A stretch of 33,167 bases of DNA from Candidatus Altiarchaeales archaeon (GCA_014727915.1 WJMO01000013.1:1-33167), one strand, 5' to 3'; numbered from the stretch's first letter, positions 15,083 to 22,845 are shown. Notes: generated by a model from the letters alone, not told the origin. Made by a program: numbers and translations.

Positions 15083-16480
15083 TCATGTCCTTTCAGCCAC
15101 TGTCGTCCCGTCCTTCCTGTCAACAACCCGTATGCCCCTCTCCAGCAGCAGGTCCCTTATCCTGTCAGCTTCAACATAGTTCTTCTCCCTTCGATGCCTG
15201 TTCCTCTCCTCCATTAGATATCTCTCATCATCTTTTAGTGTGACTGTGTCGTATTCCACGTCCAACCCTGTAACAGACATCAGCTCGTCGAATATGCGGA
15301 TGGAATTTTCGATGGACTTCCTGGACTGGCCTCCACCTTCCAAGAGCGTGTTTATGTCCCGCAAGGTTTCGAACACCGCTGCCATCGCCTGTGGCGTGTT
15401 GAAATCATTGTCCATGTGGCTGATGAAATTCTCTCTCAGCTCCTCCGACATCTTTCCCGCGCTGTTGCCTCCGTCCTCGCCGGCGTCATCCAGATTCTCC
15501 CCCAATTTTTTCCTGTAGTTCCTGAGCCTCGCCACTGCCTGCTCCGCGCTCGCAATGTTGTCTTCGCTGTAGTCGACGGGGCTACGGTAGTGCGTCTGCA
15601 ATATGAACAGCCTGAGCGCGTCCCTGCTGTGGAACTTGAGGAATTCCCTGACTGGGAGTATGTTGCCGAGGCTCTTGCTCATCTTCTCCCCGGAGGACTG
15701 GAGGAACCCGGTGTGCAGCCAGTACCTGACAAAGGGTTTTCCACCCGTCAACGACTCGCTCTGGGCTATCTCGTTCTCGTGGTGTGGGAATATGAGGTCC
15801 AACGCCCCGCCGTGGATGTCTATCCTGTCACCCAGGCACTTCCTAGACATGGCCGAGCATTCGATGTGCCAACCCGGACGACCCCGCCCCCAGGGACTTT
15901 CAAAACCGGGTTCATCCTCTCCCACGCTCTTCCACAGTGCGAAGTCCACCGGCGACCTCTTACCCGGGTCGTGTTCTATCCTATGCTCCACCAGCTGCTC
16001 TACATCCTGGTTGGACAGCCTCCCATACTCTGGATGCGATTCCACGCTGAAGTAGACGTCTCCCCCAACCTCATAGGCGCAGCCCTTCCCCACCAATGTC
16101 TCCACCGCCCCAATGATCTCCTCGATGTTCTCCGATACCCTGGGGTAGTCGTCCGCCTCCAATAGCCCCAGCTCACGCCGGTCCTCGGCTGCCCTGTCCG
16201 CGTACATGCTCGCCAGCTCCAGCGGGTCAACCCCTCTCTCGCCTGCCCTCCGGATTATCTTGTCATCCACGTCCGTTATGTTCTGCACATGGGACAACTC
16301 ATACCCCCTGTACTTGAGGTACCTGAATATGACGTCGAAGGCGAGGTAGGTTCTCGCATGCCCTATGTGCATGTCGTCGTAGACGGTCAGCCCGCACACG
16401 TACGCCCTAACCCTACCCTCCTCTAACGGCGTGAACGCCTCCAACTCCCGGGTCAACGTGTTGTAAACCTTCAAGGCCAT
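15083..16480 (-). CDS. cysS: Cysteine--tRNA ligase
   Basis: YVCGLTVYD, HIGH, NITDVDDKII, DFALWK, GRPGWHIEC, DLIFPHHENE and KMSKS motifs. Confidence 0.98.
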   Translation of the reverse strand: MALKVYNTLTRELEAFTPLEEGRVRAYVCGLTVYDDMHIGHARTYLAFDVIFRYLKYRGYELSHVQNITDVDDKIIRRAGERGVDPLELASMYADRAAEDRRELGLLEADDYPRVSENIEEIIGAVETLVGKGCAYEVGGDVYFSVESHPEYGRLSNQDVEQLVEHRIEHDPGKRSPVDFALWKSVGEDEPGFESPWGRGRPGWHIECSAMSRKCLGDRIDIHGGALDLIFPHHENEIAQSESLTGGKPFVRYWLHTGFLQSSGEKMSKSLGNILPVREFLKFHSRDALRLFILQTHYRSPVDYSEDNIASAEQAVARLRNYRKKLGENLDDAGEDGGNSAGKMSEELRENFISHMDNDFNTPQAMAAVFETLRDINTLLEGGGQSRKSIENSIRIFDELMSVTGLDVEYDTVTLKDDERYLMEERNRHRREKNYVEADRIRDLLLERGIRVVDRKDGTTVAERT

Positions 16481-16489
16481 GTTATCTTT

Positions 16490-16563
16490 AGCGAGGGGAG
16501 GGATTCGAACCCTCGAATAACAGCTTTGCAGGCCGCCCCATTAAACCGCTCTGGCACCCTCGC
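16490..16563 (-). tRNA. tRNA-Cys(GCA), intronless, CCA not encoded
   Basis: Acceptor stem GCGAGGG/CCCTCGC, discriminator U73, anticodon arm GCGGC-CTGCAAA-GCTGT, T arm GAGGG-TTCGAAT-CCCTC. Confidence 0.95.
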
Positions 16564-16571
16564 ATAATCTT

Positions 16572-17156
16572 TCATATCATCCACTCCGGCTCCTTGCTGC
16601 ATGCTTCACAGGGGTCTTTGAGCCGCTGGTAGCATCCCTCCATTATCCTCAACCGTCCCTTGGGGCACACTACAGTCGAGTCCTCTGGTATGTCGTCGAC
16701 TATGACCGCCAGCGCCCCAACTTTGGAGTTCTTCTTCACCGTCACAGGACCGAGTATGGTAGCTCCCACACCCACTGTGACGTTGTCCTCTAATGTCGGG
16801 TGTCTTTTCTCCCCTTTCCTGTCCCTCCACCACCCATGACCTCCCAGTGTCACCCCATGGTATAGCATCACGTTGTCGCCTATCTCGGCAGTCTCCCCTA
16901 TCACCACCCCGGTGGCGTGGTCTATGAAGAATCCCTTGCCTATCCTGGCGGCCGGGTGGATTTCCGCCCCCGTGAGGAACCGGCCGAAGTATGATATCGC
17001 CCTGGGTACCACCGGCACACCCATGCTGTGGAGGCCGTGGGCTATCCTGTATAGTAGGATGGCCTGGACCCCTGGGTAAAGCAAGACTTCAACGTAGCCT
17101 AGCCCGCCCTTCAATGCCGGGTCCTTCTCATATGCGGCTTTGACCGTGTCAAGCAT
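16572..17156 (-). CDS. cysE: Serine O-acetyltransferase
   Basis: [44 protein letters not shown] and KRHPTL motifs; GAGGAGG SD before ATG 17156; C-terminal Ile. Confidence 0.95.
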
Positions 17157-18075
17157 GTTCCCTCCTCTCATACAATGGTGTAGACAGGTATCTTTCCCCG
17201 GTGTCCGGGAGTATCACCACCACCCTCTTGCCCCTGCCGAGTTTCCCAGCCACTTGCAGTGCGGCCCAGGTGTTGGCCCCGGATGATATGCCCACGAGCA
17301 GCCCCTCCTCCGATGCCAGTCTTTCGCTTGTGTTGAAGGCGTCTTCGTTCTTCACCTTGATGATCTCGTCTATCAGGCCAACGTCGAGTATGTCCGGCTT
17401 GAACCCTGCTCCTATGCCCTGTATCTTATGGGCTCCTGGTTTTCCGCCTGAGAGCACGGGCGAATCCTCCGGCTCTACTGCGATGAACCTGGCCGTTGGG
17501 TGCTTCTCCTTCAGCGCCTGGGCGACTCCGGTTATGGTTCCGCCTGTGCCGACCCCCGCGATGAACGCGTCGAATTCCCCGATTTCATCTTCCAGTTCCC
17601 TGGCGGTGGTTTCCCTGTGGGCTTTCACGTTGGCGTTGTTCTTGAACTGCTGGGGTATGAACACGTGGGGGTCTTCCCCGCCGAGTTCCTCCGCCTTATC
17701 GACCGCGCCCTTCATGCCCTTCGCGCCTTCGGTTAGCACGAGCTCCGCGCCGTAGGCTTTCAGTATCTTCCTCCGTTCCATGCTCATCGTGTCTGGCATG
17801 GTTAGCTTAAGACTGTAGCCTTTCACAGCCGAGACCATTGCCAGCCCGATCCCGGTGTTGCCGGATGTGGGTTCCACGATGATGCTGTCCTCTTTCAGCA
17901 CTCCCTCTCTCTCGGCCTCTTCTATCATGTAAAGTGCTATCCTGTCCTTGACAGAGGAGCCGGGGTTGAAGTATTCTATCTTGGCTATGACTTCCGCGTC
18001 TTCCGGTCCTGTCATATTGTTCAAACGCACGTGCGGCGTTTTTCCGATGGTTTGTGTTATGTTGTCGTATATCAT
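17149..18075 (-). CDS. cysK: Cysteine synthase A (O-acetylserine sulfhydrylase)
   Basis: [14 protein letters not shown] (PLP Lys), [24 protein letters not shown] and DTGERYLST motifs; ATG 18075 follows a GAGGTGA SD. Confidence 0.97.
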
Positions 18076-18129: not shown

Positions 18130-18147
18130 GTAGGGACTAACCCCTAC
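18130..18147 (-). terminator. Candidate attenuator hairpin overlapping the leader ORF stop codon
   Basis: GUAGGG-G-UUAG-U-CCCUAC (6 bp plus a G.U pair, 4-nt loop), followed by the pyrimidine tract UUUCCACUUAUCCUAUCCC. Confidence 0.55.
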
Positions 18148-18193
18148 AGCAGCAACAGCGACAGTCGCCGGACCTAGGATGAAAACCATTCAT
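18137..18193 (-). CDS. Poly-cysteine leader peptide [18 protein letters not shown] upstream of cysK
   Basis: ATG AAT GGT TTT CAT CCT AGG TCC GGC GAC TGT CGC TGT TGC TGC TGT AGG GGT TAG; 5 Cys in 6 codons; ends 61 nt before the cysK ATG. Confidence 0.8.
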
Positions 18194-18195
18194 TT

Positions 18196-18209
18196 TTAAC
18201 AATTGTTAA
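18196..18209. promoter_or_regulatory. Operator-like palindrome TTAAC-AATT-GTTAA at the cys leader promoter
   Basis: Perfect 14-bp palindrome between a minus-strand TTTTTATA (18227-18234) and the leader ATG. Confidence 0.7.
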
Positions 18210-18354
18210 GTATAAGGCGTGGCTCATATAAAAACATGGCAGTTCCCGACAGGTCCCAATAAAACAAAAATAATATATAATATATAAAATTTTTCTTAAA
18301 TTATTTAAAAAAAATGCTACTGTCCTCTCTGTTCTGCCTTTGCTGCTTTTATAC

Positions 18355-18367
18355 TTAACGGCGTTAA
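18355..18367. promoter_or_regulatory. Operator-like palindrome TTAAC-GGC-GTTAA at the regulator promoter
   Basis: Directly after TTTTATA (18347-18353) and 8 nt before ATG 18376. Confidence 0.6.
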
Positions 18368-18375
18368 TCTCTACT

Positions 18376-18675
18376 ATGAAGCTGCCGTGCGAGACTGCAT
18401 TGTGGTATGTGCTCCCCCAGATACGGGCCGACCTGAGCCGCGCCCTCGTCAAGGAGGGCATGAGCCAGAAGGAAGTCGCGGACGTGCTGGGCATAACCCC
18501 CGCCGCAGTATCACAGTACATCCATAAGAAGCGCGGGGGCAAGATCAAGAGGACCAAGGAGTACAATGATCTGGTCAGGGATTCGGCCAAGAAGATACTC
18601 AAGTCAAAGGACGATGTTGCGGTGAGGGGGATAATCTGCAGGTGCTGCGCCGTCGGCCAGAAGTCAATGGACTGA
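18376..18675 (+). CDS. Archaeal HTH transcriptional regulator (COG2522-like, without ThiN domain)
   Basis: MKLPCE...YVLP.IRA.L...L...GMSQ.EVA..LGITPAAVSQY...KRG; C-terminal ICRCC; apparently leaderless. Confidence 0.88.
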   Translation: MKLPCETALWYVLPQIRADLSRALVKEGMSQKEVADVLGITPAAVSQYIHKKRGGKIKRTKEYNDLVRDSAKKILKSKDDVAVRGIICRCCAVGQKSMD

Positions 18676-18678
18676 ACC

Positions 18679-19815
18679 TTAACTGCCGTACTCCCTTTCT
18701 TCGCGTTCTATGAAGCCAACCAGCACGTTCCCCAACGTGTTGTTGTATACTAGGAAGGCGTCGTGGCCGTAGGGCAGGTCCAGCTTCCTGTATGTGGTGG
18801 GCGCCCCCGCCTCCGCCAGGCCCTCGTATATCTCCTCGACCTGCTCTGGAGGATACAGCCAGTCCGAGGTGAATGATACGAGCAGGAACCTGGACTTAAC
18901 GTCTTTGAACGCGTCTCTCAAACTCTTTGCCCCTCCTTCTGTGAGGTCGAACTGGTCGATGGCGTGGGTTATGTACAGGTAGCTGTTGGCGTCGAACCGC
19001 CTTACGAAGCTGTTGCCCTTGTACTGCAGGTAGCTTTGTATCTCGAACTCAACGCCGAACTTCTTCCTCGGCTTCTCGTTCTTCCGGTTCCTGTTGAACT
19101 TCCTCTCCAGCGTGTCCTGGCTCAGGTATGTTATGTGCCCCACCTGCCTTGCCAATGCCAGCCCGTCCGCCGGCCTGGATGAACCATAGTAGTCGCCTCC
19201 CTTCCACCGGGGGTCCTTTTGTATGGCCTGCCTTCCGATCTCATGGAATGCTATGCCCATGGGGTACTGTTTGGCTGCCGTGGCTATCGCGATCACCGAA
19301 TGCACGTATCCGGGGTATTCCAGACTCCACTGTAGCGCCTGCATGCCTCCTAGGCTACCCCCCGCCACCGCGAACAGCTTCTTAACTCCCAGGTGGTCGA
19401 GCAGCTTCCTCTGGGCTCTCACCATGTCCCTCACCGTCACAATTGGGAAGTCCAGGCCGTATGGTCTTCCGGTCTCCGGGTTTGTCGAGGAGGGTCCTGT
19501 GGAGCCCTTGCAGCCTCCGACCACGTTGGAGCAGACTATGAAGTACTTGCGCGTGTCGAAGGTCTTGCCCGGCCCCACTGCCACGTCATACCACCCGTGC
19601 TTCCTGCTGTTACGCCTGTGCTTTCCCGCTGCGTGGGCGTCGCCGCTCAGCGAGTGACATATGAGTATCGCGTTCGTGCCTTCTTTGTTGAGACCGCCGT
19701 ATGTTTCATAGGCTATGCGGACGTCCTCCAGTTTTTCGCCGCTTTCCAACTCTAATACGCCCAAGTCGTAGTGTCTGGCCTTCACGACCCCCATTGAACC
19801 ATCTTTCTTCGCCAA
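18679..19815 (-). CDS. metX: Homoserine O-acetyltransferase
   Basis: [29 protein letters not shown] nucleophile elbow, RFDANSY, DWLYP and GHDAFL motifs. Confidence 0.95.
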
Positions 19816-19820
19816 TTACC

Positions 19821-21113
19821 TCACACTCCCTTCAACGCTTGGTTGATGTCTTCTATGATGTCGTCGATGTTCTCCAACCCTGTGGAAAGCCTTACCAGCC
19901 CTGGTGTTATCCCCCCGCTCAACTGCTGTTTCTCTGTCAGCTGGCTGTGTGTGGTGCTGGCAGGGTGTATCGCCAGGCTCTTCGCGTCCCCCACGTTAGC
20001 GAGGTGGGAGAAAAGTTCCAGTGATTCTATGAACTTCCTGCCTGATTTGGCTCCGCCTTTGACCTCGAATATGGCCATCGCCCCGTATCCGTTCTTCAGG
20101 TACTTTTTCGCGTTGTCGTGGGTTGGGTGCGTGTCCAATCCGGGGTACCTGACCCACTCGACGTTTTCATGCGCTTCAAGGTGTTCCGCGACCGCTTGAG
20201 CGTTCCTACAGTGCCTTTCCATCCTAACGGGGAGGGTCTCAAGCCCCTGGAGGAAGATCCATGAGTTGTCCGGGGATATGCACCCTCCCAGGTTCCTCAA
20301 TGGCACGAGCCTCATCCTCAGTATGTAGGCCAGTGGTGTCAGTTCGCCCAGGTCGTGGGCGTATCTTATCCTATGGTAGCTTTCGTCTGGTTCCGTTAGC
20401 AGCGGGTGCTTGTCCGATTTGCTCCAGTCGAAGTTTCCCGAGTCGACAACTGCCCCTCCTATGCCTGTGCCGTGTCCGCCTATCCACTTTGTCAGCGAGT
20501 GTGCTACTATCTCGGCTCCGTGTTCGATGGGCCTTAGCAGGTAGGGTGTCGTGAACGTGCTGTCGACTATGTAGGGTATGCCGTTGTCGTGGGCGATCTC
20601 GGATATTGCCTTGAAGTCGGGCACGTTCAATACGGGGTTCCCGATGGTCTCGGAGTATAGTGCTTTCGTGTTTTCTGTTATTGCCTTACTGTAGTTGTCT
20701 GGGTCTGTGGGGTCTGCGAAGTTGACTTTGATGCCGAGGTCTGGCAGTATGTTGTTGAACTGGGTGTAGGTTCCCCCGTACAGGTCGTTCGCGGACACGA
20801 TCTCGTCCCCGACTCTCGCAAGGTTTATTATGCTGTAGAATATGGCGGTGGTGCCTGATGACAGGGCGAGTCCTCCGACTCCTCCTTCAAGGGAGGCCAG
20901 CCTCTTCTCGAGCACGTCCGTTGTGGGGTTCATCAGCCTCGTGTATATGTTTCCCAGTTCCTTCAACCCGAACAGGTTCGCGGCGTGTTCAGTGTCTTTG
21001 AAGATGTAACTGCTTGTCCTGTACAATGGAACCGCCCTTGACAGTGTCGTCGGGTCAGGCTCCTGCCCTGCGTGGAGCGCTTTTGTCTCCAGTCTTTCTC
21101 CTTCTGACTTCAT
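19821..21113 (-). CDS. metY: O-acetylhomoserine sulfhydrylase (aminocarboxypropyltransferase)
   Basis: [35 protein letters not shown] (PLP Lys) and [20 protein letters not shown] motifs. Confidence 0.96.
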
Positions 21114-21128
21114 CTTAACACCAACTTC

Positions 21129-21142
21129 TTAACAATCGTTAA
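21129..21142. promoter_or_regulatory. Operator-like palindrome TTAAC-AATC-GTTAA at the metY-metX promoter
   Basis: 13/14 identical to the cys site; lies between a minus-strand TTTAAAA (21148-21154) and the metY ATG. Confidence 0.7.
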
Positions 21143-21255
21143 TCATGTTTTAAATACTTGTCGGTGGTTTTTATTCTAAATAGAATATTCTATTTTTTAT
21201 TGCATGGGCGAATCCACTGTCGTCTTTATAGTCTCTGGTTCCTAATGGGTTGGGT

Positions 21256-21468
21256 ATGGGTTTATTCGACCTTTTCAAGGGGCCTCCCAAGGACCGGAGC
21301 GGCAGGTGCGCCCAGTGCAGGGCTGAAGGGGAGGATATGCCGTTTTCCAAGAAGTTCAACGGGGAAACCCACTATTTCTGCAGCAAGGAATGCAGCCGAA
21401 AGTTCAGGATCGCGCGGAAGAAGGCTGCCAAGAACCCTCCCACCGGCGGGTCCTCTCTCCCCTGGTAG
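21256..21468 (+). CDS. Small TRASH/YHS-like metal-binding protein
   Basis: MGLFDLFK...CAQC...HYFCSKEC; paralog of 6499-6684. Confidence 0.75.
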   Translation: MGLFDLFKGPPKDRSGRCAQCRAEGEDMPFSKKFNGETHYFCSKECSRKFRIARKKAAKNPPTGGSSLPW

Positions 21469-21507: not shown

Positions 21508-22845
21508 ATGAAGCATAGGCACGCTTCACCCGAAGGTCAGGCTAACGTCGAAGCCCGCCCGGTCAGCCTGCAGCACGAGGGACTTCCCTCGCCCGCCGCG
21601 TCTAGCCTTGGAACCGAGGAAAAACGCTCCGAGATCTACAGGATAGTCCGGGACCTGGCAGGTCGAAACCACTCTGAACTAGAAGGATACTTGGACAGGC
21701 GAATGGGAGGGACCATCGCACCCGGGTCTACATTACGGCGTGTTGACAGGATTTATGGTGTTTGCAGGGCGTTTGACGAGAAAAGGAGCTACTGGCGGCC
21801 CTCCAAGGCGATGAAAACACTGCTGGGACTATACAGCTACAACGTCGAATTCGGCACGGGCAAGGGCGTCTACGCGGTTCCCCTGTCGGATGGGAAAAGG
21901 CCTACCCTGACCCCGGCCCAGGAGGAGCTCGCCTTCTACACGCTGACCAGGGGCTTCACGGACCAGCCCCGCCCCGACCGCTTCCTCCGGAGCTTCGCCA
22001 AAATACCCGAGTCCAATGACATGTGCCGTGTGATGCTCACCACACTGGAGCGCGCCTACATCAGCGGCGTTGAGATCCCCGTCGATAACGCGGCTAAGGC
22101 GTTGGACCTGCTGGTCAACCGCCCGTCCGTGAGGAACGCCTACTCTGGGGAAGGCGATCTAATGGATGGTGAAACCTATCTGACCGCTCGGGGGTTGGCC
22201 ATTGCGTCCTGCCTGCGTAAGCCGGACAGGATGCAAGAGTTCGCAGACTCAATAGCGCCCGGAGAGTGTCTAACACCCCTCCAAAGGGCCTTAAGGAGGA
22301 TCGGCTTGTCGATGCCAGGGTCCTCATGGTTTCACAAATGGGCTGAGAAGATGTCTGAACACGGTGAACTGGACGCGTGGAACCATGTGCTGAATCTCCG
22401 GAAGGACGACCCCGATTGTGTTGTGAGGATGAGGGTGCATCAGGCCACGCGTGTCGTGGACGTCATACCCGGGGAGGGACCCATGCCCGGAGACTGGAGC
22501 GAGTACATCACGGCCCGGCTGAGGGGCCACAGCGACAAAGGTCACATATCCATCTACGGGAAGGACCTCTGGTGGTGCAACGCCGTTGAAGCCTGCCGGG
22601 GCGCTGTCAGGGCGTTGAGGGCCAACGGCTTCCCTGATGAGATGCCAGTTAGGATACGCTTCGACCCCAACGACCCGCTGATAAGCACGATGCCGGAACC
22701 GGAGCACCTAGACGACGAGGGCCTCCTGTCCTCTCCGAAATACCCTCTCAGGGACTTGGACGAGAGGCAGGGGTTCGGCAGGGCGATGATATTGGAGATG
22801 GTCAAGTATGGCAGGCCGCTATCGCATCAGCCCAGAAAAAAATAA
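21508..22845 (+). CDS. Hypothetical protein (445 aa)
   Basis: Long ORF with host-like codon use; no motif recognised. Confidence 0.7.
   Translation: MKHRHASPEGQANVEARPVSLQHEGLPSPAASSLGTEEKRSEIYRIVRDLAGRNHSELEGYLDRRMGGTIAPGSTLRRVDRIYGVCRAFDEKRSYWRPSKAMKTLLGLYSYNVEFGTGKGVYAVPLSDGKRPTLTPAQEELAFYTLTRGFTDQPRPDRFLRSFAKIPESNDMCRVMLTTLERAYISGVEIPVDNAAKALDLLVNRPSVRNAYSGEGDLMDGETYLTARGLAIASCLRKPDRMQEFADSIAPGECLTPLQRALRRIGLSMPGSSWFHKWAEKMSEHGELDAWNHVLNLRKDDPDCVVRMRVHQATRVVDVIPGEGPMPGDWSEYITARLRGHSDKGHISIYGKDLWWCNAVEACRGAVRALRANGFPDEMPVRIRFDPNDPLISTMPEPEHLDDEGLLSSPKYPLRDLDERQGFGRAMILEMVKYGRPLSHQPRKK

Follow-up and report, generated by a model that had tools for sequence, protein, structure and literature searches.

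A rare promoter palindrome tied to a 99-residue helix-turn-helix protein points to a regulon for sulfur assimilation in Altiarchaeales

We analysed a 33,167-base stretch of DNA from a Candidatus Altiarchaeales archaeon (GCA_014727915.1, WJMO01000013.1:1-33167), hereafter the window, which is contig C10 of a 13-contig genome of 1.81 Mb (G000) and whose closest protein relatives are listed as Candidatus Altiarchaeota. The window encodes a helix-turn-helix (HTH) protein of 99 residues, P0001, in a gene that is divergent from a cluster of cysteine genes and convergent with metX and metY, both of which are on the minus strand. Comparisons of the window with related genomes indicate that this protein is very probably a repressor of the cysteine and methionine genes and of its own gene, acting via a 14-base palindrome, TTAAC-N4-GTTAA. 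The palindrome itself is well supported across these genomes as a rare, promoter-placed element tied to the 99-residue HTH family. An earlier note on this DNA had proposed an operator, autoregulation, control of cysteine and methionine synthesis and repression, and it appears to have been right in its core. The regulator gene, the predicted operators and the promoter elements are as follows.

18376..18675, plus strand: open reading frame (ORF) of the 99-residue HTH regulator P0001, with the HTH at about residues 31-49 and with Cys5, Cys88, Cys90 and Cys91
18196..18209, no strand assigned: predicted operator O-cys, TTAACAATTGTTAA, a perfect 14-bp palindrome 2 nucleotides before the ATG of a Cys-rich leader ORF in the cysK operon
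18355..18367, no strand assigned: predicted operator O-reg, TTAACGGCGTTAA, a 13-bp variant with a 3-nucleotide spacer, 8 nucleotides before the regulator ATG
21129..21142, no strand assigned: predicted operator O-met, TTAACAATCGTTAA, 15 nucleotides before the metY ATG
18226..18234, minus strand: inferred TATA box of the cysK-leader promoter, TTTTTATAT, 16 nucleotides from O-cys, a spacing as in the cysK promoters of relatives
18347..18354, plus strand: inferred TATA box of the regulator gene, TTTTATAC, which abuts O-reg in a layout that is repeated in orthologues
21147..21156, minus strand: inferred TATA box of metY, TATTTAAAAC, 4 nucleotides from O-met

All three palindromes were recovered exactly, in sequence and in position, as the earlier note had given them. 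O-cys and O-met are identical at 13 of 14 positions, and the two divergent promoters have TTATACTTAAC in common, at 18349-18359 on the plus strand and as the reverse complement of 18205-18215. A TATA-like box was likewise confirmed by each palindrome, except that on the cysK side the element conserved in relatives is TTTTTATAT and not the abutting TTATAC. TATA boxes and transcription starts were inferred from sequence throughout, a look-up of sequencing runs that could give expression or map the starts listed none, and a scan for sigma-70-type promoters and terminators was set aside as irrelevant to an archaeon.

Within the window the pattern TTAACN{3,4}GTTAA matches the three palindromes only, compared with a mean of 0.05 matches in 100 dinucleotide-preserving shuffles, none of which reached 3. 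The same loose pattern has 5 matches in the whole 1.81-Mb genome, where scaling of the window shuffles predicts about 2.7. Since this is only about twice the expectation, the case rests on position and conservation rather than on the raw count. The signal comes from the clustering of the sites, from their promoter positions and from a stricter pattern, TTAACNATNGTTAA, which has 3 sites in this genome and none in a reversed control. Four of the five loose matches are located between a TATA-like box and a start codon, the fourth being a perfect TTAACAATTGTTAA on contig C5 that precedes the ATG of a 288-residue protein, while the fifth is inside an ORF of 674 residues on C11, about the number expected by chance. 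With 5 sites in 1.81 Mb, the motif is not common at unrelated promoters; the earlier note had named such commonness as grounds for rejecting its proposal, which thus passes this check.

We then compared 41 genomes from one order, this genome counted (G000-G040), of which 23 encode a homologue of the regulator. The strict pattern occurs 63 times in 24 of the 41 genomes, against a single occurrence of the reversed control of the same composition, and 61 of the 63 sites fall in the 23 regulator-bearing genomes. Regulator and motif are both present in 22 genomes and both absent from 16. One genome (G040) has the regulator only and two have the motif only (G023 and G031), each of the latter with one off-consensus site and no regulator homologue. 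An exact site is located at most 120 nucleotides upstream of the homologue in 17 of the 23 genomes, usually abutting a TATA box and ending 7-9 nucleotides before the ATG, which points to autoregulation as earlier proposed. The homologue is within 1.5 kb of cysK, cysE, metX or metY in 14 of the 23 loci. The consensus of the operator is a-TTAAC-[A/G/T]AT[T/C/A]-GTTAA-t, with an additional 13-bp N3 variant.

A natural loss is seen in G004, a 92% complete genome from the same genus as G013, G016, G018 and G020, which carries cysK, metY and cysteine desulfurase. The homologue search returned no regulator hit in G004, TTAACN{3,4}GTTAA is found nowhere in this genome, and the promoters of its cysK, metY and desulfurase genes have no site within 2 mismatches, at places where its congeners carry sites. 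Likewise, the cysteine desulfurase promoters of four regulator-less genomes, G004 and three more, contain a site in 0 of 4 cases.

To describe promoters and targets, we used a curated set of 69 sites from 22 genomes, consisting of the 61 strict sites of regulator-bearing genomes and 8 neighbouring variants. The spacing of site, TATA box and start codon is class-specific and conserved across these promoters. In the regulator class the site directly follows the TATA box (0 nucleotides) and ends 7-9 nucleotides before the ATG; in the metY class it is 4 nucleotides from the TATA box, an arrangement kept in G003, G009, G012 and G015; in the cysK class it is 15 or 16 nucleotides from the TATA box and 1-5 nucleotides from the ATG; and in the cysteine desulfurase class the end of the site is 1-14 nucleotides before the start codon. 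The 13-bp N3 variant upstream of the regulator is also found in G001, at the same position, and in G024 and G028, and its use at the regulator's own promoter would fit a weaker autorepression. G024 and G028 have an N4 and an N3 site, 21 nucleotides apart from start to start, before the desulfurase gene. Several relatives have a lone TATA element between two sites, and this element would seem to drive cysK in one direction and the regulator in the other.

Archaeal repressors, MDR1, LrpA, Phr and TrmB among them, bind in the interval from TATA box to transcription start or cover the start. Most of the curated promoters have the site in the stretch from TATA box to start codon or across the expected start of transcription, as for a repressor that occludes the promoter, and to this extent the positions fit the repression that had been suggested. 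In the mechanism that we propose, the palindrome would be the operator of the 99-residue protein, which would most likely bind as a dimer, a supposition based solely on the dyad symmetry of the site. Because the sites are placed between TATA box and start codon, the bound protein would block the recruitment of RNA polymerase or initiation. In this genome it is predicted to control the operons cysK-cysE-tRNA(Cys)-cysS and metY-metX, its own gene and, on another contig, the gene for the double winged-helix protein. Throughout the order, this pair of protein and operator would control cysK, metY, cysteine desulfurase, Thi4, ThiI, ThiS, SufB and iron-sulfur (Fe-S) proteins. The rarity and positions of the motif, its co-occurrence with the protein and the identities of the adjoining genes are direct observations, from which we infer binding, dimerisation and repression.

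The 69 curated sites were distributed over the following genes.

17 of 69 sites: the regulator's own promoter
14 of 69 sites: cysK
9 of 69 sites: NifS/IscS-type cysteine desulfurase, in seven genomes
6 of 69 sites: metY
5 of 69 sites: SufB, ThiS (two), Thi4 and a 4Fe-4S protein
4 of 69 sites: cystathionine beta-synthase, two threonine-synthase-like pyridoxal phosphate (PLP) enzymes and cysS
4 of 69 sites: winged-helix regulator genes
10 of 69 sites: ApbE, HMA, PdxS, a BcrAD-type ATPase, a ModA-like binding protein, an SQR-like oxidoreductase, PurN and unknowns

For ThiI, a second Thi4 and CDGSH iron-sulfur proteins, the site is one that also belongs to cysK or to the regulator, and Thi4 (thiazole synthase) adjoins the motif in both G015 and G035. 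A regulon for cysteine and methionine, as first suggested, was borne out in that cysK and metY are core targets in many genomes, but a scope confined to these two amino acids was too narrow, since desulfurase, Thi4, ThiI, ThiS, SufB, CDGSH and Fer4 genes also have sites in relatives and a winged-helix gene has one here. The predicted regulon is therefore one of sulfur assimilation and trafficking, with cysteine and methionine synthesis at its core. The association is also seen outside the order. In Archaeon SCG-AAA382B04, a homologue with 37% identity directly follows cysK, the palindrome is located 9 nucleotides before this cysK gene, which is divergent from metY, and two further copies are situated between the genes for PAPS reductase and sulfite reductase. 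On a Pacearchaeota contig the gene that comes after the homologue encodes a cysteine desulfurase, and 20 nucleotides upstream of the homologue there is a site with one mismatch.

Two further one-mismatch sites in the present genome define candidate targets only. One of these, TTAACTATCGTCAA (G000 C3:44933-44946; L125:934-947), immediately precedes the putative TATA box of an MTA-phosphorylase-like gene, which scores 185 bits on TIGR01694, below the cut-off of 275, and may be a methionine-salvage member of the regulon. The other precedes the gene for a secreted protein of 660 residues.

The 288-residue protein on contig C5 (G000 C5:79370-80254; L001:7368-8255) is a double winged-helix protein of the MarR/TrmB/DUF7343 type with the perfect operator at its promoter. 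Orthologues with the site are present in G002 and G013, and a 160-residue relative with the site is found in G011. This pattern suggests a regulatory cascade below the 99-residue protein via the double winged-helix regulator.

Several observations weigh against the proposed circuit. The related genomes are kin, so that the counts overstate independence. Moreover, of the 15 regulator-less genomes checked for cysK, a set without G037, G038 and G039, 14 gave no hit; regulator, motif and cysteine module travel together, and the co-occurrence table is therefore confounded by the presence of the cysteine module. The clean case of natural loss is a single genome, G004. Six of the 23 regulator genes have no exact upstream site: G016 and G008 have near-sites, and G006, G007, G040 and the best paralogue in G021 have none. 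G040 has the protein and no strict site anywhere in its genome. The loose pattern is uninformative in AT-rich relatives, with control counts exceeding the real counts in G021 and G029. In this genome, the cysteine desulfurase gene is without a site, as is the Fer4 homologue. Finally, none of the 49 Chlorobiaceae loci (L062-L110; the match and up to 4 kb on each side) contains the palindrome, and no other palindrome is common to more than 10 of the 49 upstream regions.

The Chlorobiaceae proteins share 47-51% identity with the window protein and have its pattern of Cys5 and C-x-C-C, together with TPAAVSQYIHKKRG in the third helix and the residues that follow. By these sequence matches the regulator family spans both domains, and the Chlorobiaceae comparison gives no support for, and no clear refutation of, the proposed circuit. 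At L062, the one Chlorobiaceae locus that we annotated, the gene is divergent from a gene for a small Haem_bd protein and next to bshC. G021 encodes five paralogues of a long form of the regulator (109-132 residues, with extra C-terminal Cys/His; loci L021, L026, L028, L029 and L030). Upstream of the paralogue at L026 the site occurs twice in a form that differs by one letter and ends in GTCAA, which hints that the operator specificity of these paralogues has diverged.

As the earlier note had stated, the regulator starts with MKLPCE and has ICRCC near its C-terminus. P0001 passes the cut-off of one Pfam family alone, HTH_3 (PF01381, Cro/C1/XRE-type; 28.6 bits against a cut-off of 23, E = 1.5e-6), with a match of residues 22-52 to profile positions 3-33 of 55. 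It passes no NCBIfam model, and the Tfx family TIGR00721 yielded 16.5 bits against a cut-off of 60.25. An AlphaFold2 model built from 101 sequences has a predicted local distance difference test (pLDDT) score of 88.3 and a predicted template modelling (pTM) score of 0.81, and consists of five helices (4-26, 31-38, 42-49, 61-76 and 80-98). Cys5 starts helix 1 in the model, and Cys88, Cys90 and Cys91 are in helix 5. The best hit in a sequence search of solved structures was a designed repeat protein, with no natural relative; Foldseek gave no match in the PDB at E up to 0.001; and the best Z score in the wide VIA-align search was 5.5, within the noise for helical models. These searches leave the fold assigned no further than helix-turn-helix.

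It is a large family, comprising 1,261 cluster representatives at E up to 1e-10, and includes members from Altiarchaeota, DPANN-type archaea, methanogens, Bathyarchaeota and Chlorobiaceae, which carry generic names only, such as 'helix-turn-helix domain-containing protein'. Among 101 close homologues, Cys5 is present in 98, Cys88 and Cys91 in 100 each, and Pro4 and Glu6 in 100 each. In 106 representatives of the wider family, 76 have both Cys5 and Cys88, 29 have neither and 1 has Cys5 alone, while Cys88 never occurs without Cys5. The two cysteines, although 83 positions apart, are thus kept or lost together and therefore probably touch. Such evolutionary coupling of conserved cysteine ligands is a feature of Fe-S and thiol-switch regulators, and the two residues could make up a single site for a metal or cluster, or act as a redox pair. 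For the sensing of sulfide, thiol or metal status that the earlier note had suggested, this conservation and covariation of the cysteines is the only evidence.

We put the chance that the cysteines act as the sensor at all at about even. On this speculative point, an Fe-S, metal or persulfide switch is favoured because of the covariation of the cysteines and the Fe-S genes in the predicted regulon. In such a switch, Cys5, Cys88 and Cys91 might hold an Fe-S cluster or a metal, or form a bridge sensitive to redox state or persulfide, in which case the sulfur-replete form would be the repressor. A smaller but appreciable possibility is that the cysteines are structural, for example as a zinc site that pins helix 1 against helix 5, and that the signal is cysteine, O-acetylserine, S-adenosylmethionine or a partner protein rather than Fe-S, thiol or sulfide chemistry. 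The Cys5/Cys88 pair is missing from 29 of the 106 representatives, about a quarter; MetJ, of about 105 residues, uses S-adenosylmethionine as a corepressor, so that a small size is compatible with a ligand; and CymR senses through CysK and O-acetylserine. Set against these points, and not decisive, are the compact five-helix model, in which no separate ligand-binding domain is apparent, and the location of the regulator next to genes for Fe-S functions, namely CDGSH (G024 and G028), SufB (G007) and cysteine desulfurase (Pacearchaeota).

Other explanations concern the palindrome and the direction of control. It is unlikely that the 99-residue protein is an activator or a dual regulator that turns on the sulfur-assimilation genes when sulfur or cysteine is scarce. 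The direction of control is not legible from sequence alone, there are archaeal factors, SurR for one, that activate as well as repress, and the one-mismatch site at the MTA-phosphorylase-like gene is on the far side of the putative TATA box; most curated sites, however, are found where archaeal repressors bind, between TATA box and start codon or on the expected start. Somewhat less likely again is that the palindrome is the operator of another regulator, for instance the 288-residue double winged-helix protein, with the 99-residue gene merely a member of the regulon. The abutment of TTAACAATTGTTAA on the TATA box of the double winged-helix gene in G000 and the sites at its orthologues or relatives in G002, G013 and G011 would suit this explanation, and binding of the palindrome by the 99-residue protein is itself a prediction. 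Yet full-length orthologues of the double winged-helix protein (E below 1e-60) occur in only 7 of the 41 genomes, G004 has two copies and no motif at all, and G001, G024, G028 and G029 have sites without a full-length orthologue. Shorter relatives of about 138 residues are also present in motif-less genomes, and in distant archaea the site instead adjoins a member of the 99-residue family. The double winged-helix protein was rejected as the binder on this phyletic pattern. Least credible of all, to the point of being very improbable, is that the palindromes are chance features without a specific binder: both pattern and promoters are AT-rich and the genome-wide loose count is just double, or nearly so, the scaled expectation, but the reversed control of equal composition gave 1 site against 63 real sites, the sites recur at orthologous promoters with fixed spacing, and the same promoters in the regulator-less congener G004 have none.

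With the 99-residue protein taken as the repressor, the circuit would be of the classical repressor-operator type on an uncharacterised archaeal protein family. It has parallels in IscR, CymR and SurR, none of which is related to P0001 by sequence. IscR, a member of the Rrf2 family with a [2Fe-2S] cluster, belongs to the iscRSUA operon of Proteobacteria, where this small HTH protein represses its own gene and the neighbouring targets. P0001 resembles it in being a small HTH protein, predicted to be an autoregulated repressor, that is encoded beside its putative targets, and in that these include a desulfurase and Fe-S genes. In IscR a few cysteines serve as the sensor, and the likeness of P0001 in this respect lies in the conserved cysteines alone. 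Unlike IscR, P0001 has no Rrf2 signature (PF02082 is absent from the 13 Pfam families that match it at E up to 0.01), has Cys5 plus C-x-C-C in the last helix, would act at archaeal promoters with TATA box and transcription factor B (TFB), and has a predicted regulon centred on cysK and metY.

CymR, also of the Rrf2 family, is the master regulator of cysteine metabolism in Bacillus and Staphylococcus. The predicted circuit resembles that of CymR in the control of cysteine and methionine synthesis from palindromic sites, and CymR also represses genes for sulfur uptake. In contrast to P0001, CymR needs a complex with CysK, senses O-acetylserine, belongs to an unrelated family and is bacterial. 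SurR of Thermococcales is a winged-helix protein with a CxxC redox switch that responds to elemental sulfur. It is archaeal and sulfur-linked like P0001, and uses cysteines as a switch. The fold family differs, however, with P0001 reaching 17.9 bits on HTH_20, well short of the cut-off of 27, and SurR controls genes for hydrogenase and sulfur reduction whereas the predicted regulon of P0001 is one of cysteine and methionine synthesis.

A further comparison is with ThiR, reportedly an archaeal thiamine regulator in which an N-terminal HTH is fused to a ThiN domain. The Atlas model of P0001, residues 1-99, aligns to the N-terminal part of ThiN-fused, ThiR-like proteins with template modelling (TM) scores of 0.74-0.78 by query, which is a lead only, with no sequence-level support. 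As a further parallel, Thi4 is among the putative targets of the motif (G015 and G035). Unlike ThiR, the 99-residue P0001 has no ThiN domain (PF10120). No longer, ThiN-fused relatives of P0001 were detected by sequence, which is weak evidence, and the ThiN proteins of the relatives G001 and G005 have no HTH.

Our full-text literature search found no published description of the protein family, of the motif or of an archaeal regulator of cysteine and methionine synthesis of this kind, and no described transcription factor for archaeal cysteine, methionine or sulfur assimilation; SurR is named in PMC10746257. The circuit would be a first handle on the control of sulfur use in such uncultured archaea and assigns a predicted function to a family of more than 1,000 sequence clusters. 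It is compact: one protein of 99 residues, one 14-bp site and three promoters that fall within 3 kb. Such a pair of protein and operator, whose regulon is coherent and predictable across lineages, predicts co-regulated sulfur genes in uncultured Altiarchaeota and other archaea, and the covariation of Cys5 and Cys88 provides a concrete hypothesis for the sensing of sulfur state.

Tentatively, and with the odds against it, the family may be the long-missing master regulator of archaeal sulfur assimilation, a minimal five-helix repressor in which Cys5, Cys88 and Cys91, and perhaps Glu6, form an Fe-S cluster site or a persulfide-sensitive bridge. If so, sufficiency of sulfur or of Fe-S clusters would directly shut off the supply of cysteine, homocysteine, thiamine-thiazole and Fe-S clusters. 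The protein would then be a functional analogue of IscR and CymR on an unrelated fold, and at cysK its control would be layered on a conserved Cys-rich leader peptide.

This leader is encoded by an ORF rich in cysteine codons, given below, that would be transcribed from the promoter overlapped by O-cys, and its stop codon lies in a hairpin loop (plus strand 18130-18147). Such ORFs were noted in the window and upstream of cysK at L004, L007, L010, L013, L014, L016, L017, L019, L044, L047, L050, L055 and L116. We inspected the upstream regions of 15 cysK genes, of which 14 contain a leader-like ORF of 18-25 residues with one Cys or more, the number of Cys being two to five in 13. Eleven of the 14 leader ORFs end in Cys-Arg-X. 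In most relatives the leader starts 1-5 nucleotides after the operator, and in G018 and G004 it starts further downstream. G004, which has neither regulator nor operator, thus also has a leader ORF. It looks like a conserved leader peptide at cysK, which would be unusual for an archaeon.

The remaining features of the locus are as follows.

18137..18193, minus strand: leader ORF, rich in cysteine codons
17149..18075, minus strand: cysK, O-acetylserine sulfhydrylase (TIGR01139, 439.1 bits, cut-off 350.95)
16572..17171, minus strand: cysE-like serine O-acetyltransferase (NF041874, 190.4 bits, cut-off 150)
16490..16563, minus strand: tRNA-Cys(GCA), between cysE and cysS (Rfam)
15083..16480, minus strand: cysS, cysteinyl-tRNA synthetase (PF01406, E = 1.4e-119)
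18679..19815, minus strand: metX, homoserine O-acetyltransferase, second gene of the metY-metX operon (NF001209, 493.5 bits, cut-off 331)
19821..21113, minus strand: metY, O-acetylhomoserine sulfhydrylase (TIGR01326, 633.6 bits, cut-off 495.1)

The Pfam and NCBIfam scores bear out the names that the flanking genes cysK, cysE-like, cysS, metX and metY had been given before; on TIGR01172 the cysE-like gene scores 194.6 bits, under the cut-off of 210.65. Downstream of O-cys, the enzymes of cysteine synthesis, the tRNA for cysteine and the matching synthetase seem to be encoded as a single unit. An Rfam scan of the window yielded the tRNA-Cys only, with no riboswitch at cysK or metY.

A second palindrome, TATTCTAAATAGAATA, is present at 21172-21187, about 15 nucleotides upstream of the metY TATA box, and this locus is the sole match in the genome to TATNCTANNTAGNATA. 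Close variants are found upstream of a thrC-like PLP gene (G015, L041) and of a ThiS gene (G024, L054), and looser variants at the metY promoters of G003, G009 and G015. This palindrome may be the site of a second regulator that is specific to the methionine or sulfur-carrier branch. Further along, an ORF of 445 residues (21508-22845) has no Pfam or NCBIfam match. It comes next after the ORF of a 70-residue protein (21256-21468, plus strand), which is divergent from metY and has a zf-FCS/YHS-like cysteine motif (PF06467, 23.4 bits, cut-off 22.4).

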